64,000 nucleotides of DNA from an uncultured Prevotella sp. GTDB lineage: Bacteria; Bacteroidota; Bacteroidia; Bacteroidales; Bacteroidaceae. The notes beneath the pieces are model-generated. The model ran no database searches. It was not told the DNA's origin and saw only the letters and a list, made by a program, of their open reading frames with translations. Position numbers and translations under genes: made by a program. The stretch covers positions 6,985 to 70,984 of the forward strand of contig CAMBOI010000007.1 of the NCBI GenBank assembly GCA_945869265.1, in the 5' to 3' direction. This document shows, one piece after another, positions 52,053 to 63,939 of this stretch. The first letter of the stretch is position 1. Each line of letters opens with the position of its first letter.

Positions 52053-53330
52053 TTATTTGCCTGAGCCCGTAAACTGTCCCATGAAGAGGATGGCACCTGT
52101 GTAGTTGTCCTGAATCATATAGACGAAGGGATGGTCGCAATGGAAATCCACACGGCGGGGTTCATCCGGACGTAAGGCAGTGAGTTTCACCATTCCCAGA
52201 GTGACGGCAGCTGCCTTTGTGCCCTCTTCGCTCACTTCAATCTTGGCTTTCTGAAGCATCTCCGACACAAACACATTGCCATTGGCAAAGGATGAGAAGT
52301 CGGCACGTGAGGCATCAAACATAGAGGGTGCGCCCAATTGTGATATGATGTCCTTCAGCGAGAGTTTCATCTCGGTGGTAAAGCGGGGGAGTTTGAGGTC
52401 AACGAGACATTCCTCCATATTGCGGCGGAGCGAAGCGATGGAGTCGGCATTGAGAGCTTTGGTCACATCGGAGATAAACTTACCCTCATTTGGCAAGAGC
52501 ACTGTCATCGAATAAGCCCCCGAGCCATAGGGTAGGGTCACAGCCGAATATACATCGTTTGAAGTGTAGTAGTACTTCGCGTTGCGATGCATCATATCTA
52601 CATATTTTATATCGCGTGTATATCCGTTGAACTGCTCCTTCTTGGTGTTGTTCTTGTCAAACTTGCCTGTCCATGTGCCGTTGAAGTAGATGGCATTCAT
52701 GATGTATGCCACAGCCGAAGGCTCCACCTGGTCGATGATGGATGGAATCATGTTGTCGGTATGCTCACTACACCAACTGTTGATGCGCTTGGTGCTCTCG
52801 GGATTGTTGAAGTCGAGGGCTTCCACTGCCCCCTGATAACTGTCGGCAATGGTTGAGGCATATTTCTTCTTGAGCTGAAACTCCTTGTTGAGGGCGATAT
52901 AGTTGGCGATGTTGAGGGTGGTCTGCTTGTCGGCAGTCTTTGCCCTTCGCATGAGATAGGCATAGAAGGCGTTCATCTCGTCGATGTCAAAGTCCTTGGC
53001 ACCGATAGTAGCCATAATCTCCTCGCGTGTTGAGGCTTCCGCTCCGTTGGCAAGCATCGACATGAGATAAGTGACGCTCATTGGTGAGATTACACTCGAA
53101 CCAAGGCCTTTCACCTCGGAGAAGAGGTTGAGGGCAAACTGGTTGTTGCGCTTCACGAGGTCGTACTGTGCATCTGAGATTACCATGAACTCAGGGTCGA
53201 TGTCATCTTCTTCTGTCATACTTGTCATATTATTACTCTTGTTATCACTAATTTTCTTTGTTGAACTGCAAGCCGAAAAGGTGAGCAGTACAGTTGCCAT
53301 CATGGCAATGTTCTGGAATGTCTTCTTCAT
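52053..53330 (-). CDS. serpin-family protease inhibitor, lipoprotein
   Basis: Lipobox LLTFSAC. Serpin hinge/RCL EEGTKAAAVTLGMVKLTALRP followed by FHCDHPFVYMIQDNYTGAILFMGQF. Confidence 0.85.
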   Translation of the reverse strand: MKKTFQNIAMMATVLLTFSACSSTKKISDNKSNNMTSMTEEDDIDPEFMVISDAQYDLVKRNNQFALNLFSEVKGLGSSVISPMSVTYLMSMLANGAEASTREEIMATIGAKDFDIDEMNAFYAYLMRRAKTADKQTTLNIANYIALNKEFQLKKKYASTIADSYQGAVEALDFNNPESTKRINSWCSEHTDNMIPSIIDQVEPSAVAYIMNAIYFNGTWTGKFDKNNTKKEQFNGYTRDIKYVDMMHRNAKYYYTSNDVYSAVTLPYGSGAYSMTVLLPNEGKFISDVTKALNADSIASLRRNMEECLVDLKLPRFTTEMKLSLKDIISQLGAPSMFDASRADFSSFANGNVFVSEMLQKAKIEVSEEGTKAAAVTLGMVKLTALRPDEPRRVDFHCDHPFVYMIQDNYTGAILFMGQFTGSGK

Positions 53331-53524: not shown

Positions 53525-53547
53525 CAGCCGGAAAAAAGAGAGTAATT

Positions 53548-53583
53548 GAAAAGAAGAGAAAGAATGAAAAGAAGAGAAAGAAT
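53548..53583 (+). repeat. perfect 18-bp tandem duplication gaaaagaagagaaagaat x2 (third partial unit follows)
   Basis: Units are at 53548-53565 and 53566-53583. Each ends in the AT of an ATG, creating in-frame starts at 53564 and 53582. Confidence 0.9.
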
Positions 53584-55681
53584 GAAAATAAGTGTGTTTA
53601 TTAAGGGCGTAGTGGGCGTGATGACTTTATGCCCACTGCCTGTTTTTGCCTCGATGCAGGCGGATGAAGAGAATAATGTGATAGAGAAAGAAAATGAGCA
53701 CGAACACGATATATTCAAGACCGTAGGACTTGACGAGGTTGTGGTGTCGGCAAACAAGAATACGGTGAAACGCAAGGATGCACCGGTTGTGGTGAACGTG
53801 ATAAGCGCCCGCTTGTTTGAACAGGTGAATGCCCCCGACCTTGCCAAAAGCTTGTCCTATCAGTCGGGATTGAGAGTGGAGAACAATTGTCAGAACTGCG
53901 GATTTCCACAGGTGAGAATCAACGGACTCGAAGGTCCTTATTCACAAATACTTATTAATAGCCGCCCGGTGGTGAGTTCGCTTGAGGGAGTATATGGACT
54001 CGAACAGATACCTGCCTCAATGGTGGAACGTGTAGAAGTGGTGAGGGGAGGAGGCTCGGCTCTTTTCGGTGCTAATGCCGTGGGTGGTACCATTAATATC
54101 ATCACCAAGGACCCAAAGAGCAACTCCTTTCAGGTGGGCAACACACTGTCGCTCATAGGCGGAAGTGCATGGGAAGACAATATGAGTGCCAATGCTTCGA
54201 TGGTGGGGCATGACAATGATTATGGTATTGCCTTCTATCAGTCATACCGCAACCGCCAACCCTACGATCACGATGGCGATGGATTCTCGGAGATTGGTAA
54301 ACTGTCGTCGCACACCCTCGGTCTGAGGGGATTCTATCGTCCGTCGCAGTTTACGCGTCTCGGTATAGAATACCACACCACAAATGAGTTCCGCCGCGGA
54401 GGTAATAAGTTTGACCTCGAACCGCATCTCACCGACATCACCGAACAGACACGACATATAATTAATAGTGGTGGATTGAATTATGACATCGCATGGAAAG
54501 AATGGGCGCACAAGGTGTCGCTCTTCTCGTCGGTGCAGCATATCGACCGCAACAGTTATTATGGAGCGCAACAAGACCCCGATGCCTACGGCAAGACCAA
54601 GGACTTGACATACGTGGGTGGAGCGACATATACAGGTAAATTCAGCAGTATGCTGTTCGCCCCGGGAACCCTTACTGCTGGTGTGGAATATCAATACAAC
54701 TCCCTTCATGATATCATGACGGGATATAATCGTGACCTCAAGCAGGACGTGAAGATAGGAAGTCTTTATGTCCAAGGGGAATGGAATAATAATAAGGTGA
54801 CATTACTTGCGGGATTGCGCCTCGACAGTCATAACCTCATCGACAACCCGATATTCAGTCCTCGTCTTAATATGATGTGGAAGCCTAAGGATAATGTGCA
54901 GGCTCGCCTTACATGGTCAACGGGATTCCGTGCTCCCCAGGCCTATGACGAGGACCTCCACGTGACGGCAGTGGGAGGCGAGGGAGTTATCATCCGTCTT
55001 GCCGACGGACTGAAGCCCGAGTATTCCAATAGTTTCAGCGGTTCGGTGGATTGGACTTTGTATAGCGGTCATTTTCAGTTTAATATCCTTGCCGAGGCTT
55101 TCCATACATCCCTTTCCGACGTGTTCTATCTGCAAAACATTGGTGTGGATGCGGATGGCAATACAGTGCAGGAGCGTCGCAATGGCAGTGGGGCAAAGGT
55201 GTATGGAGTCAACTTCGACGCCAAGGCGGCTCATGGTTCCAACTTCTTCGTTCAGGCTGGTCTCACCCTTCAGCGAAGCCGCTATAATGAGTTAACCACA
55301 TGGAGCGAAGACCCTGAGGTGGCTCCTGTGCGCGATATGCCTCGCACTCCCGATGTCTATGGCTACTTCACGATGAATATCCAACCAGTGAAACGTCTCG
55401 ACATATCGTTGTCGGGAATATATACCGGACGTATGCACGTGCCCCACTTTGGCGAGCAGGACGAGATGGTGCATACGCCCGATTTCGTAGAGTTGTCGTC
55501 CAAGATTGCATATACCTTCTCTCTTGGACATCATCTTAATATGCAAGTGAATGCCGGCATACAGAATATTCTGAATGCATTCCAGAAAGACCTCGACCGT
55601 GGCACATTTCGCGACTCGGGCTATTTCTATGGCCCAACCCAACCACGTACAGTATATGTCGGTTTCAAGGTCTCGATGTAA
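53582..55681 (+). CDS. TonB-dependent receptor
   Basis: Signal peptide MKISVFIKGVVGVMTLCPLPVFA, TonB-box-like DEVVVSA, plug (RVENNCQNCGFPQVRINGLEG), and a 22-strand-type barrel. An alternative start at 53564 adds MKRRER. Confidence 0.85.
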   Translation: MKISVFIKGVVGVMTLCPLPVFASMQADEENNVIEKENEHEHDIFKTVGLDEVVVSANKNTVKRKDAPVVVNVISARLFEQVNAPDLAKSLSYQSGLRVENNCQNCGFPQVRINGLEGPYSQILINSRPVVSSLEGVYGLEQIPASMVERVEVVRGGGSALFGANAVGGTINIITKDPKSNSFQVGNTLSLIGGSAWEDNMSANASMVGHDNDYGIAFYQSYRNRQPYDHDGDGFSEIGKLSSHTLGLRGFYRPSQFTRLGIEYHTTNEFRRGGNKFDLEPHLTDITEQTRHIINSGGLNYDIAWKEWAHKVSLFSSVQHIDRNSYYGAQQDPDAYGKTKDLTYVGGATYTGKFSSMLFAPGTLTAGVEYQYNSLHDIMTGYNRDLKQDVKIGSLYVQGEWNNNKVTLLAGLRLDSHNLIDNPIFSPRLNMMWKPKDNVQARLTWSTGFRAPQAYDEDLHVTAVGGEGVIIRLADGLKPEYSNSFSGSVDWTLYSGHFQFNILAEAFHTSLSDVFYLQNIGVDADGNTVQERRNGSGAKVYGVNFDAKAAHGSNFFVQAGLTLQRSRYNELTTWSEDPEVAPVRDMPRTPDVYGYFTMNIQPVKRLDISLSGIYTGRMHVPHFGEQDEMVHTPDFVELSSKIAYTFSLGHHLNMQVNAGIQNILNAFQKDLDRGTFRDSGYFYGPTQPRTVYVGFKVSM

Positions 55682-55700
55682 GTTAAGAAATTAAAAAATA

Positions 55701-56249
55701 TTATCTCGCAGCATAGAAGAAGCCTCTACCTGTGGCTGTGGCAACCTCGTTGAGACCCATCTCGTCAACAGTCACGTCCATTTTCTTGTCGCCCAGGTTC
55801 ACCTGTATAGTGCCGTTGTCGTTGAATCGGAATATCTCAACCAATTTGCCGTTTTCCATCTGCGACCACGAGTCGTTGTTCTTGTCATATACAAAGCAGG
55901 TCACTTTGCCGTCGGGAGCCTTGATCTCATATCCGTTCTTCAAGGTCTTCACGGCATAGTATCTGCCGTCCTGTCCTTGCACTTTGACAGTCTTGCCCAC
56001 ATTGCTTGCGATAGGGTTGGAACCGCTCCAGAACTCAATGGAGTTGAGCACCAGTGCATCGGCAACCGAACATACGGCATAGGCAGGCGAGATAACGATA
56101 AAGATAATCTCGTTGAGGAACTTCGATCCTGTCGCGTCCTTATTCCAAGATGCCAACTTGTTGAACAACGAGAACGAACCTACACATGATGTTGTAAGCA
56201 TTGTGGCACACATGAGAAGTGTAGCCACGGTAAAAAACCTTCTTTTCAT
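55701..56249 (-). CDS. DUF3332-like lipoprotein
   Basis: Lipobox LTTSC. GSFSLFNKLASWNKDATGSKFLNEIIF...DALVLNSIEFWSGSNP matches my memory of DUF3332. Confidence 0.6.
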   Translation of the reverse strand: MKRRFFTVATLLMCATMLTTSCVGSFSLFNKLASWNKDATGSKFLNEIIFIVISPAYAVCSVADALVLNSIEFWSGSNPIASNVGKTVKVQGQDGRYYAVKTLKNGYEIKAPDGKVTCFVYDKNNDSWSQMENGKLVEIFRFNDNGTIQVNLGDKKMDVTVDEMGLNEVATATGRGFFYAAR

Positions 56250-56522
56250 TTTTCTTTCTGTTTTTGATTATTGAATAATACTCTTTTTTATGTCTATGGT
56301 TTAATCCGGGTGTAAAGATAAGAATATAATTCCATATTTGGTTAATAATCCATATATATTTATTGATTTTTATGTTTTTTATGTATTTATGAAATGACAT
56401 TCTGATGATTGTTAATGTCAAAATGATACTGATATTTGAGTCATAAGTGTTAAAAAGTAAGCAAAATCTTGTAATATCGTACATTTCCTTCGAAAATATT
56501 TGGTTATTTTAGACAAAATGTA

Positions 56523-56530
56523 TAACTTTG
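56523..56530 (+). promoter_or_regulatory. -7 promoter box TAacTTTG of the ATP-grasp operon
   Basis: tgtaTAACTTTGcagtcg, with TTTGG 19 nt upstream (-33-like). The leader is about 80 nt. Confidence 0.55.
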
Positions 56531-56616
56531 CAGTCGAAAACTTGACAAGTTGTAATTGTCGTGACAGGATGACATAACAATTATGGTATGGTTAATACAA
56601 CAAAACACAGGATATT

Positions 56617-57945
56617 ATGGGAATAAACATTAAGGAATTGACAGACAGTAGGGACACCGTCAACAAGTGGATGGAACGATTTGGAGTCCGCTTCGGTGTT
56701 TACAAGAAGGGCGTATTCAACGAGCAGCTTTTCCCCTTTGACTCTGTGCCGAGGATAATACCCAAGAAGGATTGGGATTATCTGGAGCGTGGATTGGAAC
56801 AGCGAGTGCGTGCCCTCAACATGTTCTTATGGGACATTTATCACGAGAAAAAGATTATCAAGGACGGAGTGGTGCCCGAGGAATTCGTGTATTCCTCAAA
56901 GGGATATATGCCACAATGCGAAGGCATTAGTCCTACGGGTAAGGTGTATGCCCACATCGCCGGTATCGACCTCGTTGAGGGGAAGAACGGTCAGTGGTAT
57001 GTATTGGAGGATAACCTCAGGATACCCTCAGGCGCAAGCTATCCGATGATTGCGAGGATGATTACCCGCAAGGTGGCGCCACAGACTTTCTCGATGAATG
57101 CAGTGGCCGACAACCGTGATTATGCCGACATGTTGCGCCAGATGATGGACGACATGAATCAGGATCGTGGTATAGCAGTCATTCTTACTCCTGGCAGATA
57201 TAATTCTGCTTTCTTCGAACATTCTTATTTTGCCGAAAAGACCGGTGCCACATTGGCATATCCGGGTGATATGTTCGTAGAGGACAACAAGGTGTATTAT
57301 GCAGGTATGTATAAGGAGAAGACTCGTGTGGGATGTATCTATCGTCGTGTGAGCGACGAGTATATGGACCCCATGATGTTCGAGCCCTCGTCGCTTCTTG
57401 GCATCCCCAACGTGATGCAGGCCTACAAGGCTGGCAATGTCGCTCTCATCAATGCCATCGGCAATGGTGTGGCCGACGACAAGGGTATCTATTACTTTGT
57501 GCCTAAGATGGTGAAGTATTATCTCGGCGAGGAGTCGATACTTCAGAATGCTCCCACCTATCTGCCGTATTTCAAGGAGGATTATGATTATGTGATGGCA
57601 AATATCGACAAACTCGTCATCAAGGATGTGAGTGAGGCTGGTGGATACGGAGTGGTGTTCGGTTCGGAACTTGCTCCCGACAAACTGCAAGAACTCAAGG
57701 GCTTGATTGAGCGCTATCCTCGTCGTTGGATTGCACAGGAAGTGGTGGATTTCAAAGACCTCGAGATACTCGAGGATGGAGAACTCGTATGGCGTAAGGC
57801 CGACCTGAGAGCATTCGTGGTGAGCGGCAATGAGACTAAGGTATGGAAGAGTGGACTGACCCGATTCTCGCGTAACCCCGACTCCTTTGTTGTCAACTCG
57901 TCGCAGGGAGGCGGATTCAAGGACACATGGGTAATGACAGAATAA
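56617..57945 (+). CDS. circularly permuted type-2 ATP-grasp protein
   Basis: 442 aa. ...FPFDSVPRIIPKKDWDYLERGLEQRVRALNMFL.DIY...., GIDLV....G.WYVLEDNLR.PSG.SY, and NA.GNGVADDK are characteristic of the CP_ATPgrasp_2 (DUF404/DUF407) family. Confidence 0.8.
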   Translation: MGINIKELTDSRDTVNKWMERFGVRFGVYKKGVFNEQLFPFDSVPRIIPKKDWDYLERGLEQRVRALNMFLWDIYHEKKIIKDGVVPEEFVYSSKGYMPQCEGISPTGKVYAHIAGIDLVEGKNGQWYVLEDNLRIPSGASYPMIARMITRKVAPQTFSMNAVADNRDYADMLRQMMDDMNQDRGIAVILTPGRYNSAFFEHSYFAEKTGATLAYPGDMFVEDNKVYYAGMYKEKTRVGCIYRRVSDEYMDPMMFEPSSLLGIPNVMQAYKAGNVALINAIGNGVADDKGIYYFVPKMVKYYLGEESILQNAPTYLPYFKEDYDYVMANIDKLVIKDVSEAGGYGVVFGSELAPDKLQELKGLIERYPRRWIAQEVVDFKDLEILEDGELVWRKADLRAFVVSGNETKVWKSGLTRFSRNPDSFVVNSSQGGGFKDTWVMTE

Positions 57946-57965
57946 TTTAAAGTTAAGATTTAAAG

Positions 57966-58664
57966 ATGGTAAAAAGTGATATAATATCAGCCACTAAGGC
58001 AAACAGACTTTACTGGCTTGGAAGGTATGAAATGAGAGTGTATCTCACTCTCCATCAGATGAACAAGTGTTGTGACAAGATGATCGACGGTCACGAGGAT
58101 GATTATCTCGCATTTTGGGAGAAACTGGATGTAGAGGGAGTGTATAAGACAAACGACGAGTTTACCTTTGGTATGCTTTACGACGAGAATAACACATCGT
58201 CGGTTATATCCGCCCAGCGATTCGCTATGGACAATGCCATGATGCTTCGCGAGGACATCATGTCGGAGACCCTTAGCTATCTCGAGATGAGCATTGCCCT
58301 GATGAAGAAACTCAAGGCGGCTCACGAAATGAATATCACAGCCCTACAGCCTGTCATCGACTGGTCGCTGGCTTTCTGGGGCTCGGCCGAACAGCGTCTG
58401 CAGAACCACAAGGCTCTCAACATCATGATGATCGGTCGCAATGTCGAGAATATGGATATGCTCACTCGTTTTGGTTATCCCTATCGTCGTCTCTCCCTTG
58501 CCTATGATTCGCTCAAGCGCTATTGCAAGGAAATGACTGGTGCACTGGATGCCAACATCGAGAGCCAGTTGGACAATATGATTGTCGAGAGTAAGTTTAA
58601 TCTCGATGATCCCCAATTTAAGGGCAAACTCATAAAATATATCAACCAGCTCGTAAGAGTATGA
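57966..58664 (+). CDS. alpha-E domain protein (short form)
   Basis: ATKANRLYWLGRYEMRV at the N-terminus and an all-helical composition. 232 aa, shorter than the ~300 aa I recall as typical. Confidence 0.7.
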   Translation: MVKSDIISATKANRLYWLGRYEMRVYLTLHQMNKCCDKMIDGHEDDYLAFWEKLDVEGVYKTNDEFTFGMLYDENNTSSVISAQRFAMDNAMMLREDIMSETLSYLEMSIALMKKLKAAHEMNITALQPVIDWSLAFWGSAEQRLQNHKALNIMMIGRNVENMDMLTRFGYPYRRLSLAYDSLKRYCKEMTGALDANIESQLDNMIVESKFNLDDPQFKGKLIKYINQLVRV

Positions 58665-59452
58665 AGCGATACATATACAATTATCAGACCATAGTCACGT
58701 TCAGCGAGAGCGTCATCAACCATTCTGTCCTTCTCAGGTGTCAACCGGCTGTGGGAGCCTATATGACTGTTGATGAGGAACATCTCATCATCTCACCAGG
58801 ATTCCGCCTGACCAAGAGCGTCGATCAGTTGGGCAACCGCATCGTATATGGAGCTCAGCGTGAGGCACACATGTCCTTGGCCTATGTCAGTGCGGGAATA
58901 GTGTCGATGTCGCCTTATATCATAAGGAACGAGAGGGAATTCAATCCCGTTTATCTGGTGCAGACTCGGCTTACCGACATAGGGCAGTGGACACCCGATG
59001 CCGAAGCAACGGGCATTCCTACCGAAGGGAGCGCCTTGCAGGGGCATGCCATCGACGTCGCCCAGGAGATATGCCACAAGGTGTATGGGATGATGACCTA
59101 CGTGCCGTTCTCCACCAATGTCGAGACCACGGCATCACATGTGCTGACGACATTACAGGGCGTGTGTCAGGACTATGCTCATCTGATGATTGGATTTTGT
59201 AGGAGGTGTGGAATACCCGCACGTTATGTGTGCGGATTCTTGGAAGGTACGGGTGAAACCCATGCCTGGGTCGAGGTGTATGACGGCTATAGTTGGATAG
59301 GTTTTGATCCTACCAACGACTGCCGCATCATCTACGGCTATGTCAAGCTCGCCCACGGTCGCGACGCCTCAGATTGTCCTGTCAGTCGTGGAATATATGG
59401 CGGACAGGCATTGCAGCAAACTCAAATCAGCGTAACATTAAAAGAAATATGA
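58661..59452 (+). CDS. transglutaminase-like cysteine peptidase family protein
   Basis: Bact_transglu_N-like N-terminus and an intact Cys-His-Asp triad: GVCQDYAHLM, THAWVEVY, GFDPTND. Its start overlaps the upstream stop (ATGA). Confidence 0.85.
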   Translation: MKRYIYNYQTIVTFSESVINHSVLLRCQPAVGAYMTVDEEHLIISPGFRLTKSVDQLGNRIVYGAQREAHMSLAYVSAGIVSMSPYIIRNEREFNPVYLVQTRLTDIGQWTPDAEATGIPTEGSALQGHAIDVAQEICHKVYGMMTYVPFSTNVETTASHVLTTLQGVCQDYAHLMIGFCRRCGIPARYVCGFLEGTGETHAWVEVYDGYSWIGFDPTNDCRIIYGYVKLAHGRDASDCPVSRGIYGGQALQQTQISVTLKEI

Positions 59453-60381
59453 TAAAGACAATCGTATCGACGTCACTGCCCATCAACGAGCGGTTCGCGA
59501 TAAGGAAAAACATTATTAAAAACGGAAAAGGAAATAGACGCGTGTGTATAGTCACCGGCACTCATGGTGACGAACTCGAAGGACAGATGGTGTGCTATCT
59601 CGTGGCAAAGCAACTCAACGAGAATCTCGACCTTCTCGACGGCACGGTGGAGATTTATCCCGCACTCAATCCTCTTGGCATCGACACTATCCAGAGGGGC
59701 ATACCCAACTTCGATCTTGACATGAACCGCATCTTTCCCGGAAATCCCAACGGAACAATGGCAGAACAGACTGCCCATCTCATCGTGGAAGACCTCAAGG
59801 GTGCCGACCTCGTGTTCGACATTCATTCAAGCAACCTCTATCTCAGGGAAACGCCACAGGTGAGGATAAATGTATTGAACGAAAAGGAACTGGTGCCGCT
59901 TGCCCAGCGTCTCAACATCGACTTTGTATGGGTGCACGATGCAGCCACCGTGTTGGAGTCAACCCTTGCCCATTCACTTAATTCCATCGGCACCAAGTGT
60001 CTTGTGGCGGAATTGGGAGTGGGACAGCGTATCAATCACAAGATGTGCAACCGTCTCACCCTCGGCATCTTCAATCTAATGAAAGATTTAGGAATGTGGA
60101 AGGGAGAAATCCAACAAAGCCTTATCTCCAATCCTATAGTGTGCAAGGGCGACAACGTGGAGTTTCTTAATGCCGCCACATCTGGCATCTTCATCACCGA
60201 GCTCAAATGCGGAGTGGTAGTTGCTGAGGGTGAGGAGATAGGACAGATAGTGGAACCGATGACTGGTACGGTGCTCAGTAGGGTGATATCTCCTGTCGAG
60301 GGATATATGTTCACCATCCGTGCTTATCCCATAGTATATGAGGGTTCGCTGATGGCGAGAATCTTTAGAATTAGGAATTAA
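59449..60381 (+). CDS. AstE/AspA (succinylglutamate desuccinylase/aspartoacylase, M14-like) family zinc hydrolase, intact copy
   Basis: VCIVTGTHGDELEG (HxxE zinc motif), NP.G, DLVFDIHSS (second His). Start set to ATG 59449, overlapping the upstream stop (ATGA). Confidence 0.8.
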   Translation: MIKTIVSTSLPINERFAIRKNIIKNGKGNRRVCIVTGTHGDELEGQMVCYLVAKQLNENLDLLDGTVEIYPALNPLGIDTIQRGIPNFDLDMNRIFPGNPNGTMAEQTAHLIVEDLKGADLVFDIHSSNLYLRETPQVRINVLNEKELVPLAQRLNIDFVWVHDAATVLESTLAHSLNSIGTKCLVAELGVGQRINHKMCNRLTLGIFNLMKDLGMWKGEIQQSLISNPIVCKGDNVEFLNAATSGIFITELKCGVVVAEGEEIGQIVEPMTGTVLSRVISPVEGYMFTIRAYPIVYEGSLMARIFRIRN

Positions 60382-60398
60382 GAATTAGGGATTAGGAA
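60364..60398. repeat. five tandem heptamers TT(T/A)(A/G)G(A/G)A
   Basis: tttagaa ttaggaa ttaagaa ttaggga ttaggaa encodes the last residues (FRIRN*) of AstE copy 1, fills the spacer, and runs into the A of the ATG of copy 2. Confidence 0.85.
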
Positions 60399-61330
60399 TG
60401 AGAATTGAGACAATATTTCAGATGAAGTCACCCTATAGGGATGATTTCCGCATCGATGGCTATTGGTTTGGCTCGGGCGAGAAAACCGTGGCTATAGTAG
60501 GTGCGATGCGAGGCGATGAGATACAGCAGCAATATATTTGTGCGCGTATAGTTGAGGCTTTGAAGGAAGCCGAATTAAGGGGAAAAATAGCCGATGGCAA
60601 GAGCATATTGGTTATACCGTCATGCAATCCGTTTTCGATGAACGTGTCGAAGAGGTTCTGGGCAATGGACGGTACCGACATCAACCGTATGTTCCCGGGA
60701 TATGACAAGGGAGAGACTACCCAGCGCATTGCCGCTGCTGTGTTTGAATACATCAAGGACTTCGAGTATGGCATGCAGATGGCAAGCTTTTATATGCCGG
60801 GAGATTTCGTCCCCCATGTACGTATGCTCAAGACGGGATATGAGGATATTGAAACGGCACAGCTCTTTGGCATGCCCTTTGTCACTGTGCGCAAACCCCT
60901 TCCGTTTGACACCACATTGCTCAACTACAACTGGCAGATATGGGACACCAAGGCTTTCTCCATCTATGCCGGACAGACTAATTATGTGGAGGATTCCACC
61001 AGCGGACAGACCATCGACTCTATTCTGCGTTTCCTCAAAAAGATACATGTGCTCGACGTGAGGGTGCAGAATGCCGGATACGAGTCAATTGTATTGGATG
61101 AGGATGAACTGGTGAATATCATAGCCCGTCGTGCCGGAATCTTCTATCGTATAATAGGAGCCGGTCCGCATGTCAAGGAGGGTCAGGTGCTGGCTCGCAT
61201 CCTCGACCCCTACGATTGTAGTGTGCTCGAAGAGATAAAGGCTCCTGTCGGAGGCACAGTATTCTTTGCCTACAACAAGCCTCTTACCCTCGAACATGCC
61301 ATCCTCTACCGCATACAGAAATTCGACTAG
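60398..61330 (+). CDS. AstE/AspA-family paralog with degenerate metal-binding motifs
   Basis: It aligns by eye to copy 1 but has VAIVGAMRGDEIQQ (Arg for the first His) and YGMQMASF where copy 1 has VFDIHSS. Confidence 0.75.
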   Translation: MRIETIFQMKSPYRDDFRIDGYWFGSGEKTVAIVGAMRGDEIQQQYICARIVEALKEAELRGKIADGKSILVIPSCNPFSMNVSKRFWAMDGTDINRMFPGYDKGETTQRIAAAVFEYIKDFEYGMQMASFYMPGDFVPHVRMLKTGYEDIETAQLFGMPFVTVRKPLPFDTTLLNYNWQIWDTKAFSIYAGQTNYVEDSTSGQTIDSILRFLKKIHVLDVRVQNAGYESIVLDEDELVNIIARRAGIFYRIIGAGPHVKEGQVLARILDPYDCSVLEEIKAPVGGTVFFAYNKPLTLEHAILYRIQKFD

Positions 61331-61695
61331 AGCTTTGAGAGAAAGCGCTCACGATCCACGATGAATCGCAGGTGCTTTCCCTCACCTATGACATCGTTTC
61401 CCTGCCGGGCCACAACCGAGAAATATAGTTTTCTTCCGTCAATCTTGTCAAGGGTGGCAGTTGCCTCCACCTCTGCGCCTATAGGCGATGGTTTGAGATG
61501 CGACGACTCGATATGCCCGCCCACAGTGGTGGAGCCTTCTGGCAGATGTGAGCTCACTGCCAGCATTGCGGCATTCTCCATCAGAGCCATCATTGACGGA
61601 GTGGCGAATACGGGCATGTCGCCCGAACCCAATGCTATGGCGGTATTTCTTTCATCCACCACAGTCTTGCTTGTATAAGTTAATCCTGTTTCCAT
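61327..61695 (-). CDS. hotdog-fold thioesterase family protein
   Basis: 122 aa. TAIALGSGDMPVFATPSMMALMENAA... resembles small acyl-CoA thioesterases (FlK-like). Its stop overlaps the AstE copy-2 stop at CTAG. Confidence 0.65.
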   Translation of the reverse strand: METGLTYTSKTVVDERNTAIALGSGDMPVFATPSMMALMENAAMLAVSSHLPEGSTTVGGHIESSHLKPSPIGAEVEATATLDKIDGRKLYFSVVARQGNDVIGEGKHLRFIVDRERFLSKL

Positions 61696-61842
61696 AATGC
61701 AATTTTTTATTGTTTTGTCAATGCAAAGGTAACTAAAAAGCCCGTATTATGCAAATTTAAGACGCAAAAGTTTGCCGTATCCCAAAAAATAACTACTTTT
61801 GCACATTCATTTATCATAAATAATAATATAATACATCAAGAA

Positions 61843-62355
61843 ATGGCATTAATAAAATCTATAAAAGGCTTAACCCCGAAATGGGGACGTGACTGTTATT
61901 TCAGTGAGAATGCCACCATCGTTGGCGAAGTCACTATGGGTGATGAATGTTCCATCTGGTTTAATGCTGTGGTACGTGGAGATGTGGCTCCCATCACCAT
62001 CGGCAACCGCACCAACGTGCAGGATGGTTCGTGCATTCATGTCACCAACACCACTGGTCCCACCGTCATTGGCAATGATGTCACCATAGGTCACAATGCC
62101 ACAGTGCATGCCTGCACCATTCGCGACGGAGCTCTCATTGGTATGGGTGCCACCTTGCTCGATCATTGTGATATTGGCGAGGGTGCCGTAGTTGCAGCCG
62201 GTGCATTGGTACTTCAGAACACCAAGATTGGTCCTCACGAGTTATGGGGTGGTGTTCCTGCCAAGTTTATCAAGGAGACCAAGGAGAATCAAGCCGAGAG
62301 CTTCGGTCAGCACTATGTGGAATACTCCAAGTGGTATCTTGCTGAGCAGGAATAA
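61843..62355 (+). CDS. gamma-class carbonic anhydrase-like hexapeptide-repeat protein (YrdA/PaaY family)
   Basis: Left-handed beta-helix hexapeptide repeats (IGNRTNVQDGSCIH, IGNDVTIGHNATVH, ALIGMGATLLD). Confidence 0.8.
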   Translation: MALIKSIKGLTPKWGRDCYFSENATIVGEVTMGDECSIWFNAVVRGDVAPITIGNRTNVQDGSCIHVTNTTGPTVIGNDVTIGHNATVHACTIRDGALIGMGATLLDHCDIGEGAVVAAGALVLQNTKIGPHELWGGVPAKFIKETKENQAESFGQHYVEYSKWYLAEQE

Positions 62356-62495
62356 CGGCATAAATATAGCTATCAATCCTTCGCTATTTTGCCGCAAAAG
62401 GTTAAAAATCCCTTATTGCGGCAAATTTAACGCCTCTTATTTTGCCGCAATTGATATTTTTTTGTATCTTTGCGGCAAAATAACGGCATAAATAT
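62351..62495 (+). promoter_or_regulatory. 17-bp direct repeats flanking four TTGC(C/G)GCAA palindromes and a -7 box
   Basis: aataacggcataaatat occurs at 62351-62367 and 62479-62495. Palindromes are at 62389-97, 62416-24, 62442-50 and 62470-78. The -7 box TAtcTTTG at 62465-72 overlaps the last palindrome. Confidence 0.7.
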
Positions 62496-63939
62496 GGCAC
62501 AAAAAATTATTGGAAGGCAAAAGGAGCAACAGGAGCTTTGGGATTTATACAATTCAGGCAGACCAGAACTTGTTGTTGTTCAGGGAAGGCGCAGGGTGGG
62601 CAAGACCTATCTTGTGAGAGAATTGTTTGATAGCAAGATGACATTCTATCATACAGGTCTATCACCTGCAGAACTTTCTGCCGAAAAAGGCAGTTTGCAA
62701 AAAATGCAACTTGCAAGTTTTTATTCATCACTCGTGAGGTATGGATATAATGGCACTGCACCCAATAATTGGCTCGAGGCATTTGACAAACTAAGAGATT
62801 TATTGGAATCCAAGGATAGAGAAGAACGACTGGTTGTATTCATAGACGAACTGCCTTGGATGGATACTCCACGATCGTTTTTCATCTCAGCCTTTGAGCA
62901 TTTCTGGAATGGATGGGGTTCGGGAAGAAGCAACCTCATGCTTATTGTGTGCGGTTCAGCCACCTCATGGATTAATGACAAGATAATCAATAACAAGGGT
63001 GGACTGTACAATAGAATAACAGCCGAAATAATATTGACACCATTCTCTCTTGGCGAATGTGAACAACTCTACAAGCATCTCGGTGTGGCAATGGATCGTT
63101 ACGACCAGTTGCAGGCATATATGATAACAGGAGGCATACCTTATTATATTGTCATGATGGACAAGAGGCTCAGCCTTGCCCAAAACATTGACAATCTATT
63201 TTTTGTAAAGAGTGCAAAACTGAAAAATGAGTTTACGCGACTTTTCAATTCGCTATTTACTAATCCCGATGACTATATCACTATCGTCAAGCTGCTGGGT
63301 AATAAGCGAATAGGATATACGAGAAAAGAGATTGCCGAAGAAACATCAATAGCATACGGAGGGGGACTTACAGCAATTCTCAAGGCACTCGAAGCAAGTT
63401 GTTTCATTGAGGCTTACACGCCATATAATGGTTCAAACCGCGATATTCGTTATCGTCTCACCGATCCATTTTGCCTTTTCTTTACGCATTTTCTTGATAC
63501 GAACAAAAGTACTGACCCTCAATTTTGGCAAAATAACTTGCTGATGCCAACACTCACAGCATGGCGTGGATTTGCTTTTGAGAATGTATGCACTCTCCAC
63601 ATCAAGCAGATTAAGCAGGCTCTCGGCATAAATGGAGTTTATACAGAGTGTTCGTCATGGAGTAGTAAGTCTTCGCATCGTGCAGCTCAAATAGATCTTG
63701 TGATTGACAGAGCCGACCATGTAGTAAACCTTTGCGAAATGAAATTCACTGCGGATGATTTTCATATAGATAAATCGTGTGATGCAGACTTGCGCCACAA
63801 ACTTACCACATTTATAGAGGAGACGAAATGCCGTTCTTCAATACACATTACCCTCGTGACAACATATTCATTATCGCGCAATGAATATTCAGGAAGAGTG
63901 CAGAGTGTAGTAACAATGGACGACTTGTTTAAAATATGA
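62494..63939 (+). CDS. AAA-type ATP-binding protein (archaeal-ATPase/DUF234-like family)
   Basis: IIGRQKEQQEL...VVVQGRRRVGKTYLVREL (Walker A) and LVVFIDELPWM (Walker B). Start set to ATG 62494. Confidence 0.75.
   Translation: MAQKIIGRQKEQQELWDLYNSGRPELVVVQGRRRVGKTYLVRELFDSKMTFYHTGLSPAELSAEKGSLQKMQLASFYSSLVRYGYNGTAPNNWLEAFDKLRDLLESKDREERLVVFIDELPWMDTPRSFFISAFEHFWNGWGSGRSNLMLIVCGSATSWINDKIINNKGGLYNRITAEIILTPFSLGECEQLYKHLGVAMDRYDQLQAYMITGGIPYYIVMMDKRLSLAQNIDNLFFVKSAKLKNEFTRLFNSLFTNPDDYITIVKLLGNKRIGYTRKEIAEETSIAYGGGLTAILKALEASCFIEAYTPYNGSNRDIRYRLTDPFCLFFTHFLDTNKSTDPQFWQNNLLMPTLTAWRGFAFENVCTLHIKQIKQALGINGVYTECSSWSSKSSHRAAQIDLVIDRADHVVNLCEMKFTADDFHIDKSCDADLRHKLTTFIEETKCRSSIHITLVTTYSLSRNEYSGRVQSVVTMDDLFKI

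Follow-up and report, generated by a model that had tools for sequence, protein, structure and literature searches.

Gene organization and promoter of the locus

The 64,000-nt stretch of DNA analysed here (the window) is taken from contig CAMBOI010000007.1 (positions 6,985 to 70,984, forward strand) in assembly GCA_945869265.1 of an uncultured Prevotella sp., and it carries a cassette of five genes encoding a circularly permuted ATP-grasp ligase, an alpha-E protein, a transglutaminase-fold thiol enzyme and two AstE/AspA-family proteins, AstE1 and AstE2 (Table 1). The first three genes are referred to below as the trio. An initial annotation, made from the sequence alone, had described an operon in which a pair of deacylases extends this trio, and each of its five open reading frames (ORFs) was found on the plus strand with the same boundaries; the ATG start of AstE1 is also the start used in the gene calls of relatives. 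The junctions were likewise as described, with a 20-nt gap between genes 1 and 2, two 4-nt ATGA overlaps and a 16-nt gap between AstE1 and AstE2. Across about 130 loci, the median intergenic distances were 33.5, -4, -4 and +3 nt in gene order, and the 4-nt overlap made up about half of the last three junctions.

Table 1. Positions of the cassette genes, promoter elements and other features in the window and in the related loci (L numbers).
Feature	Sequence	Position	Strand	Remark
ATP-grasp, circularly permuted type-2 amidoligase, short form	window	56617-57945	+	442 aa
Alpha-E, short form	window	57966-58664	+	232 aa
Transglutaminase-fold Cys-His-Asp thiol enzyme	window	58661-59452	+	263 aa
AstE1, intact AstE/AspA-family (M14-like) zinc amidohydrolase	window	59449-60381	+	310 aa from ATG
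AstE2, catalytically dead AstE1 paralogue	window	60398-61330	+	310 aa
Probable -33 element TTTG	window	56499..56502	+	20 nt upstream of -7 box; read from sequence
-7 box TAACTTTG (TAnnTTTG)	window	56523-56530	+	94 nt upstream of ATP-grasp start codon
Inverted repeat TAATTGT/ACAATTA	window	56553-56559 and 56577-56583		7-nt arms, 17-nt spacer
amtB	L021	1411-2802	same as ATP-grasp	directly upstream
amtB	L031	938-2329	same as ATP-grasp	directly upstream
amtB	L036	4737-6224	same as ATP-grasp	directly upstream
AstE1 and AstE2 alone	L070	8907-10927		Desulfovibrionaceae
AstE1 and AstE2 alone	L082	9066-10936		Lachnospiraceae
AstE1 and AstE2 alone	L171	7067-8936		Clostridium butyricum
Cassette with long ATP-grasp and long alpha-E	L170	3813-8933		Persephonella sp.
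Insertion between transglutaminase-fold gene and AstE1	L164	4013-7900		3.9 kb, six ORFs
Peptidase_Mx/zinc-ribbon metallopeptidase gene within the trio	L085	9378-10439	-	Caballeronia megaplasmid
FlK-like hotdog thioesterase gene	window	61327-61695	-	stop overlaps last 4 nt of AstE2
ORF with lipoprotein-like N-terminus, possible serpin	window	52053-53330	-	upstream of operon
TonB-dependent receptor-like gene	window	53546-55681	+	upstream of operon

The promoter consensus of Bacteroides consists of TTTG, a spacer of 19-21 nt and TAnnTTTG. A promoter with its -7 box ahead of the ATP-grasp gene had been proposed, and the TTTG upstream of this box is a probable -33 element of the Bacteroidota type, at a spacing that fits the consensus. 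Over the whole window, TAnnTTTG was weakly enriched (54 matches vs 39 expected). In 99 of 134 related loci, it was present in the 250 nt that precede the ATP-grasp start, mostly 40-115 nt away, compared with 148 of 2185 coding 250-nt windows (6.8%) used as the control. In an alignment of the upstream regions of related loci, the motif was kept as ...AAAATGnnTAnnTTTGCA, forming a footprint in otherwise diverged DNA, and a TTG-containing block was retained at the -33 position. The motif was found upstream of ATP-grasp neither in non-Bacteroidota loci nor in the three loci with amtB directly upstream. The conserved position of the motif in related loci bears out the proposed promoter. Between the -7 box and the start codon, the 5′ untranslated region also holds a perfect inverted repeat, which is retained only in the closest relatives.

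The conserved promoter footprint occurred only ahead of the first gene. An Rfam scan of 55600-62500 was negative for riboswitches and other RNAs, and no site inside the five-gene unit resembled a terminator beyond chance level; consensus scans for sigma-70 promoters and terminators stayed at chance level, as expected for Bacteroidota. Given the tight or overlapping junctions, the footprint before the first gene and the lack of an Rfam or terminator interruption, the five genes are predicted to form one transcript, which is well supported by the comparison across loci. The single operon of the initial annotation is thus borne out by the junctions in the window and by their medians across the loci compared. 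All five proteins of the cassette are cytoplasmic.

The ATP-grasp, alpha-E and transglutaminase-fold proteins

In profile searches, all five family calls of the initial annotation scored above the Pfam curated thresholds. The ATP-grasp protein matched CP_ATPgrasp_2 with 456.6 bits (cut-off 32, E=7.8e-137) over profile positions 1-373 of 374, and PDB entry 3n6x with E=9e-109, while no NCBIfam equivalog was matched. It is the most conserved protein of the cassette, with 60-90% identity across phyla. Its identity is at least 60% within the genome survey described below, 45-53% in the deep branches and 41-45% against the proteobacterial clade. The sole biochemistry found for the trio in the literature searched concerns the ATP-grasp homologue from Y. 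bercovieri, which frees phosphate from ATP (PMC6376114).

The alpha-E protein matched Pfam Alpha-E with 60.5 bits (cut-off 20.8, E=2.9e-16), only over profile positions 6-164 of 294, and it is best classified from its sequence as a short form of the family that does not span the full-length domain. Residues W17, R20, Y21, E23 and R24 of the N-terminal W..RY.ER motif are invariant or nearly so, the proteobacterial long forms included, and N90, R95, G157, E161, D164 and R168 are also common to these long forms. An AlphaFold2 model showed an all-helical bundle of 11 helices, with a predicted local distance difference test score (pLDDT) of 87.4; a fold search of the PDB with this model gave no meaningful match (best E=0.9), and there was no sequence match in the PDB.

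The shortness of these two proteins, which had been taken as the sign of a distinct variant, is real: in Proteobacteria, ATP-grasp has 483-490 aa and alpha-E has 316-345 aa. The window ATP-grasp is without about 40-45 N-terminal residues found in the 483-490 aa forms, and the window alpha-E is without the C-terminal 80-100 residues or so of the canonical long forms. However, shortness did not hold as a marker of the AstE-linked form: in Persephonella sp. (L170), the same AstE pair is accompanied by an ATP-grasp of 488 aa and an alpha-E of 313 aa, both of them long forms, so that shortness and the AstE pair are separable. In most cassette lineages, the N-terminal loss in ATP-grasp and the C-terminal loss in alpha-E occur together, and on this ground one might speculate that the two missing segments contact each other. 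That ATP-grasp and alpha-E are physical partners is supported by a natural ATP-grasp+Alpha-E fusion of 803 aa on an Enterobacter plasmid (L084).

The third protein matched Transglut_core with 82.3 bits (cut-off 23, E=3.8e-23). Its N-terminal region scored 26.7 bits against Bact_transglu_N (cut-off 27), a match that is also weak in the closest relative and is not marked as weak in other cassette homologues. The Cys-His-Asp triad is intact, as had been claimed: C169, H201 and D216 are conserved in at least 95% of 74 homologues and align with the catalytic motifs of PDB entry 3isr, to which the whole protein was matched with E=1.5e-19. A weak match to NCBIfam lasso_biosyn_B2 was also obtained (E=0.0088, 16.4 bits vs cut-off 33).

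AstE1 and its paralogue AstE2

AstE1 matched AstE_AspA_cat with 92.6 bits (cut-off 25, E=3.1e-26), and AstE2 matched the same profile with 39 bits (E=7.8e-10), only over positions 3-91 of 192. The two proteins share 24% identity over their full length. The best sequence and fold matches of both were the N-acetyl-L-2,4-diaminobutyrate deacetylase DoeB/EutE and the unassigned AstE/AspA structures 3cdx, 3na6 and 2qj8, with the two-domain architecture shared over the full length; the nearest solved relatives of AstE1 were 3cdx and DoeB (6twl/6twm), and CphZ was a weak sequence match. In AstE1, residues H39, E42, H126, E188 and N93-R94 are kept in 78 homologues and in all deep branches. From the alignment, H39, E42 and H126 are predicted to bind zinc, E188 to serve as the general base (the catalytic Glu) and N93-R94 to bind a carboxylate, and the zinc and catalytic residues are identical to those of DoeB.

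AstE2, in contrast, has no such active site. The first His is replaced by R38, the second His by A129 and the catalytic Glu by Y190, and the His/His/Glu set is absent from every member of the AstE2 clade in all phyla examined. The N-R motif is present in AstE1 and in most AstE2 proteins; the Campylobacterota branch of AstE2 has lost this motif and the remaining Glu as well. The pair of deacylases seen by the initial annotation is therefore one protein with zinc and catalytic residues, AstE1, and a conserved dead paralogue. An AlphaFold2 model of AstE2 reached a pLDDT of 94.8, and the top Foldseek matches of this model were 3na6 (E=2e-23, TM score 0.82), DoeB, 3cdx and CphZ, with TM scores of 0.7-0.8. 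Across phyla, identity ranges from 51 to 81% in AstE2 and from 51 to 79% in AstE1, and strongly conserved motifs specific to AstE2 were found (NRMFPGY..GETTQRIA, PHVR and LNYNWQ). Because the active-site residues are lost throughout the clade and yet the range of identity matches that of AstE1, AstE2 is read as a conserved pseudoenzyme, which is under the same purifying selection as AstE1 and belongs to the family by fold only.

AstE2 is probably a partner subunit of AstE1, the two together forming an AstE1/AstE2 heteromer. AstE1 and AstE2 were also found as a pair with no trio nearby in a Desulfovibrionaceae metagenome-assembled genome (MAG; L070), a Lachnospiraceae MAG (L082) and Clostridium butyricum (L171), which shows that the pair is a functional unit on its own. 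Upstream of the lone pair lie thi genes and a ParA-like gene in L070, an AraC regulator in L082 and a gene for a SEC-C-domain protein in L171. A third AstE-like group (P0204, P0208, P0225 and P0230) was also noted, in which the HGDE and H-S-S-N zinc motifs are kept and the catalytic Glu is exchanged for Gln or another residue.

Distribution of the cassette

Protein matches to AstE2 were at first confined to close relatives (above 92% identity), with little diversity. A profile of the AstE2 clade (8 sequences) matched at least 594 GTDB species-representative genomes, of which the best 80 were taken. Among these 80 loci, 65 had the full five-gene order and strand, 13 were cut by a contig end and two held the pair only (L070 and L082), so that the order was found in 65 of the 67 informative genomes chosen via AstE2. 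A second survey used 80 metagenome contigs picked through ATP-grasp alone, where a contig with at least 3.45 kb of downstream DNA was counted as informative. The full set was present on 51 of 51 informative contigs, and the 29 truncated contigs held nothing contradictory. The initial annotation would have been given up if the AstE-like genes were not conserved beside the trio in related genomes; the conservation holds from both ends of the cassette.

The same cassette was found in five of six deep-branch relatives, whose AstE2 is 31-39% identical: the complete genome of Sulfurospirillum barnesii, a Persephonella contig, the chromosome of a "Gammaproteobacteria bacterium", one complete 1.7-Mb chromosome and an environmental Bacteroidetes contig. 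The sixth, Clostridium butyricum, has the AstE pair alone. By the labels of their records, the Bacteroidales hosts include Prevotella, Parabacteroides distasonis, Paludibacteraceae and Rikenellaceae, and other hosts comprise Mailhella/Desulfovibrionaceae, Lachnospiraceae, Clostridiaceae, Oscillospiraceae and Opitutales, with Campylobacterota, Aquificota and a gammaproteobacterial MAG among the deep branches. The cassette thus spans at least six phyla of anaerobic and microaerophilic bacteria. The suggestion of a distinct Bacteroidota variant was not upheld, with the cassette also present in Clostridia, Desulfovibrionaceae, Opitutales, Campylobacterota, Aquificota and the gammaproteobacterial MAG. 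Some MAG labels look wrong (short, Prevotella-like contigs). However, bin contamination cannot explain the spread, since the GC content of the loci ranges from 28% to 60% and sequence divergence tracks the host labels.

The closest genome record was a Prevotella sp. MAG (L004) with 99% identity. One alpha-E variant was indexed in 1123 blocks of the assembly collection, and gut and rumen Prevotella very often carry the cassette. Carriers among isolates and complete genomes include Prevotella sp. P6B1, Parabacteroides distasonis An897 and Sulfurospirillum barnesii.

Clustering of the flanking genes gave no conserved neighbour beyond the five genes; the commonest were amtB (8 loci), purL (6) and an oligopeptide ATP-binding cassette (ABC) ATPase (5). 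The cassette is therefore self-contained, an autonomous and repeatedly transferred module. The absence of Anbu, a proteasome-like subunit, from the locus was confirmed, as no proteasome-like gene was present in nine Pfam-annotated contexts and no flank gene recurred. On one metagenome contig (L164), an insertion separates the transglutaminase-fold gene from AstE1; one of its six ORFs encodes a PIN-domain protein and follows a small ORF, possibly its antitoxin, and the other ORFs have no Pfam match.

Probable link to nitrogen

In three Prevotella loci (L021, L031 and L036, the last from isolate P6B1), the ammonium transporter gene amtB (Pfam Ammonium_transp) lies 10-35 nt upstream of ATP-grasp, giving a six-gene unit without glnK. 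Within 10 kb of the cassette, amtB was found in 8 loci in several different arrangements. The trio has been linked to nitrogen supply in other bacteria: it is among the most strongly NtrC/sigma-54-dependent genes in Burkholderia (PMC5491218), it is induced on nitrate relative to ammonium in Pseudomonas putida (PMC8050072), and it co-varies with urea genes in marine metagenomes (PMC3597751). A literature search for a link between Prevotella and nitrogen limitation gave nothing relevant. The physiological setting of the cassette is probably nitrogen economy.

Relation to known systems

The trio is among the most widespread conserved gene neighbourhoods in bacteria, and the prediction of its function dates from 2008-2009; a 2009 survey by Iyer et al. 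is reportedly its source. In agreement with the initial annotation, the function of the trio is still undefined, as no product or target was found in the literature searched, newer papers on the Anbu operon included. A full-text search gave no paper joining succinylglutamate desuccinylase, transglutaminase and ATP-grasp, and neither the five-gene form nor the dead paralogue was found described in a search that did not cover the Iyer et al. survey.

The classical Anbu operon of Proteobacteria, Cyanobacteria and Cytophagales consists of ATP-grasp, alpha-E, transglutaminase and Anbu genes. Its first three genes belong to the same families, in the same order, as those of the cassette (PMC6376114); the alpha-E motifs are shared, the ATP-grasp proteins are 41-45% identical, and a nitrogen-limitation context is likely common to both. 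The cassette differs in that Anbu is lacking and genes 4 and 5 are the active/dead AstE pair. Moreover, in most lineages, the ATP-grasp N-terminus and the alpha-E C-terminus are shorter than in the Anbu-operon forms, and by their labels the hosts are mostly anaerobes of gut, rumen and vent-type lineages, unlike the hosts of the Anbu operon. Given that an Anbu gene was sought at the window locus and not found, the locus belongs to the ATP-grasp/alpha-E/transglutaminase neighbourhood and is not an Anbu operon proper. On a Caballeronia megaplasmid (L085), a gene for a Peptidase_Mx/zinc-ribbon metallopeptidase lies inside the proteobacterial trio and interrupts it. This arrangement hints that the hydrolase of the trio is interchangeable (Anbu, Peptidase_Mx or the AstE pair).

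Cyanophycin metabolism (CphA1/CphB-E/CphZ) likewise joins a ligase of the ATP-grasp type and a peptidase to an AstE-family hydrolase that acts on a small isopeptide conjugate, and is also related to nitrogen. CphZ, a structural neighbour of AstE2 and a weak sequence match of AstE1, is a homodimer in which H50, E53 and H179 bind zinc and E251 is essential (PMC9974463). In this homodimer, both subunits are active, whereas the cassette has an active/dead pair. No CphA-type synthetase or cyanophycinase was found in any cassette context examined. Furthermore, the ligase of the cassette comes from the circularly permuted ATP-grasp clade, unlike CphA, and its peptidase has a transglutaminase fold, unlike the serine-peptidase fold of cyanophycinase. 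The formal likeness to CphA/CphB/CphZ is one of logic and not of membership.

With respect to DoeB, which acts in ectoine degradation, no such context was found around the cassette. AstE1 scored 71.3 and AstE2 28.4 bits against TIGR02994 (DoeB), for which the equivalog cut-off is 402.7, and both are so far below it that they are not DoeB orthologues. Against TIGR03242 (AstE), AstE2 scored 16.4 (cut-off 305.65) and AstE1 gave no match. AstE1 is thus assigned, by sequence comparison, to the AstE/AspA family and not to the DoeB or AstE orthologues. A similar pairing is known from tubulin, in which TTLL ligases (ATP-grasp) are opposed by M14 cytosolic carboxypeptidases, that is, a trimming hydrolase of the M14 superfamily. 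This analogy has been applied to the trio by the Aravind group (PMC3495828). However, the families differ within both superfamilies, and a protein target of the cassette is only hypothetical.

Possible functions of the cassette

AstE/AspA-family enzymes form dimers or larger assemblies, and their substrates include N-succinyl-Glu, N-acetyl-Asp, N-acetyl-diaminobutyrate (N-acetyl-DABA) and beta-Asp-Arg. To our knowledge, all characterised members (AstE, aspartoacylase, DoeB and CphZ) hydrolyse small conjugates with a free alpha-carboxylate. The best explanation of the locus, which we hold with moderate confidence, is that the cassette provides an ATP-dependent amide ligase and a thiol amidase, together with AstE1/AstE2 as the hydrolase of a small amino-acid conjugate. 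An ATP-grasp/alpha-E complex would activate a carboxylate as the acyl-phosphate and join it to an amino group, and the product would be an amide- or isopeptide-linked amino-acid conjugate or a short polymer. The transglutaminase-fold enzyme would then cleave or transfer the ligated linkage, and AstE1/AstE2 would hydrolyse the resulting small conjugate bearing a free alpha-carboxylate, with AstE2 as a non-catalytic partner of AstE1 that may bind the substrate or regulate the enzyme. In this scheme, the AstE pair would occupy the place of the proteasome-like Anbu hydrolase of the classical operon. The ligate-and-trim cycle suggested by the initial annotation is, judged from the sequences, a reasonable inference.

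Several points weigh against this explanation. The adjacency to amtB was limited to about 10% of loci, of which several are related, and neither a nitrogen regulator nor a riboswitch was found (the Rfam scan of 55600-62500 being negative). The AstE1-AstE2 complex has the co-inherited active/dead pairing as its sole basis. A ligase and hydrolases for the same bond on one transcript would make a futile cycle unless regulated. In the literature, no substrate, product or activity is established for any member of the trio, and the operon proteins of Y. bercovieri did not co-purify with Anbu (PMC6376114), so that stable complexes should not be assumed for the system. Finally, the precedent of the AstE family favours small-molecule substrates by analogy, yet leaves a protein C-terminus possible.

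A more specific version, which we consider rather unlikely as it stands, is that the cassette makes and recycles a new cytoplasmic amide- or isopeptide-linked conjugate of amino acids, or a short polymer, as a nitrogen buffer or reserve in bacteria that have no cyanophycin. ATP-grasp/alpha-E would act as synthetase and the transglutaminase-fold enzyme as depolymerase, and the final hydrolysis would fall to an obligate heterodimer of AstE1 (catalytic) and AstE2 (a substrate-binding pseudoenzyme). If this is true, the chemistry of the entire, long-unsolved ATP-grasp/alpha-E/transglutaminase (Anbu-operon) system would become apparent from the AstE pair.

A doubtful but serious alternative is that the ATP-grasp enzyme tags side chains or C-termini of proteins or peptides, and that the transglutaminase-like peptidase and AstE1 remove or trim the tags. 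Such tagging has been predicted for the trio in the literature (PMC3495828; PMC5666114). It agrees with the place of AstE/AspA in the M14-like carboxypeptidase superfamily (the NCBI name is M14 family metallopeptidases), with the carboxypeptidase B match that was also reached by the AstE2 model in Foldseek, and with the N-R carboxylate-binding motif retained by AstE1 and most AstE2 proteins. However, the substrates of all characterised AstE/AspA enzymes are small N-acyl or isopeptide conjugates of amino acids and not proteins, no candidate target gene is conserved beside the cassette, and no tagged protein was found in the literature for the trio system. We ranked tagging below the small-conjugate explanation, as enzymes of the AstE family are not known to have protein substrates and no target gene accompanies the cassette.

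The cassette could also serve in the catabolism of an imported amide, for example an N-acylated or gamma-linked amino or diamino acid. AstE1/AstE2 and the thiol amidase would then set free ammonia or amino acids, and ATP-grasp would carry out an activation step and not a biosynthetic one. The nearest characterised relatives of AstE1 are indeed catabolic (DoeB in ectoine breakdown, AstE and CphZ), the lone AstE pair in the Lachnospiraceae MAG L082 adjoins an aminotransferase and the AraC regulator, and the link to nitrogen limitation would fit. Nevertheless, this is unlikely: the cassette has no conserved transporter or regulator gene beside it, ATP-grasp enzymes make bonds and do not break them, and AstE1 is far under the equivalog cut-offs (71 vs 402.7 bits for DoeB and no match for AstE).

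ATP-grasp enzymes also occur in some classes of ribosomally synthesized and post-translationally modified peptides (RiPPs), and the weak lasso_biosyn_B2 match of the transglutaminase-fold protein would suit a RiPP or other secondary metabolite pathway, with an ATP-grasp macrocyclase, a transglutaminase-like leader peptidase (cf. lasso peptide B2) and trimming by AstE. We regard this as very unlikely, given that no precursor-sized ORF is conserved (neighbouring genes of the cassette overlap or lie a few tens of nt apart, and the region upstream in the window holds only AT-rich ORFs of 21-34 aa), that no exporter or immunity gene is conserved, and that the very high conservation of ATP-grasp across phyla is atypical of RiPP enzymes. 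Least credible of all is that the trio and the AstE pair are unrelated neighbours, as the pair-only state of three loci and the 3.9-kb insertion tolerated between genes 3 and 4 in one locus might suggest, or part of an anti-phage defence island, since order, strand and tight junctions are kept across six phyla in both search directions and PADLOC models gave zero matches for all five proteins at E<=0.01.

Under the small-conjugate explanation, Anbu would have been exchanged for a family with well-understood chemistry, the hydrolysis of small N-acyl or isopeptide conjugates, which narrows the search for the product. The invariant pair of a live and a dead paralogue offers a clear, testable case of a pseudoenzyme partner, and with the cassette carried by isolates and complete genomes, genetics and metabolomics under ammonium limitation are feasible. 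The variant is robust and widespread, and it is a handle on a long-standing orphan system.

Genes around the cassette in the window

In the window, the cassette is flanked by a divergent DUF3332 gene and a convergent FlK-type thioesterase gene. The latter, which encodes a hotdog-fold protein (Pfam FlK, E=7e-36), is kept beside the cassette only in the nearest relatives (L001-L004, L086, L087 and L089) and is therefore placed outside it. Further upstream of the operon lie a TonB-dependent receptor-like gene and an ORF with a lipoprotein-like N-terminus. The syntenic counterpart of this ORF in the close relative L001 encodes 426 aa with a Pfam Serpin match, and the window ORF may be a bacterial serpin.

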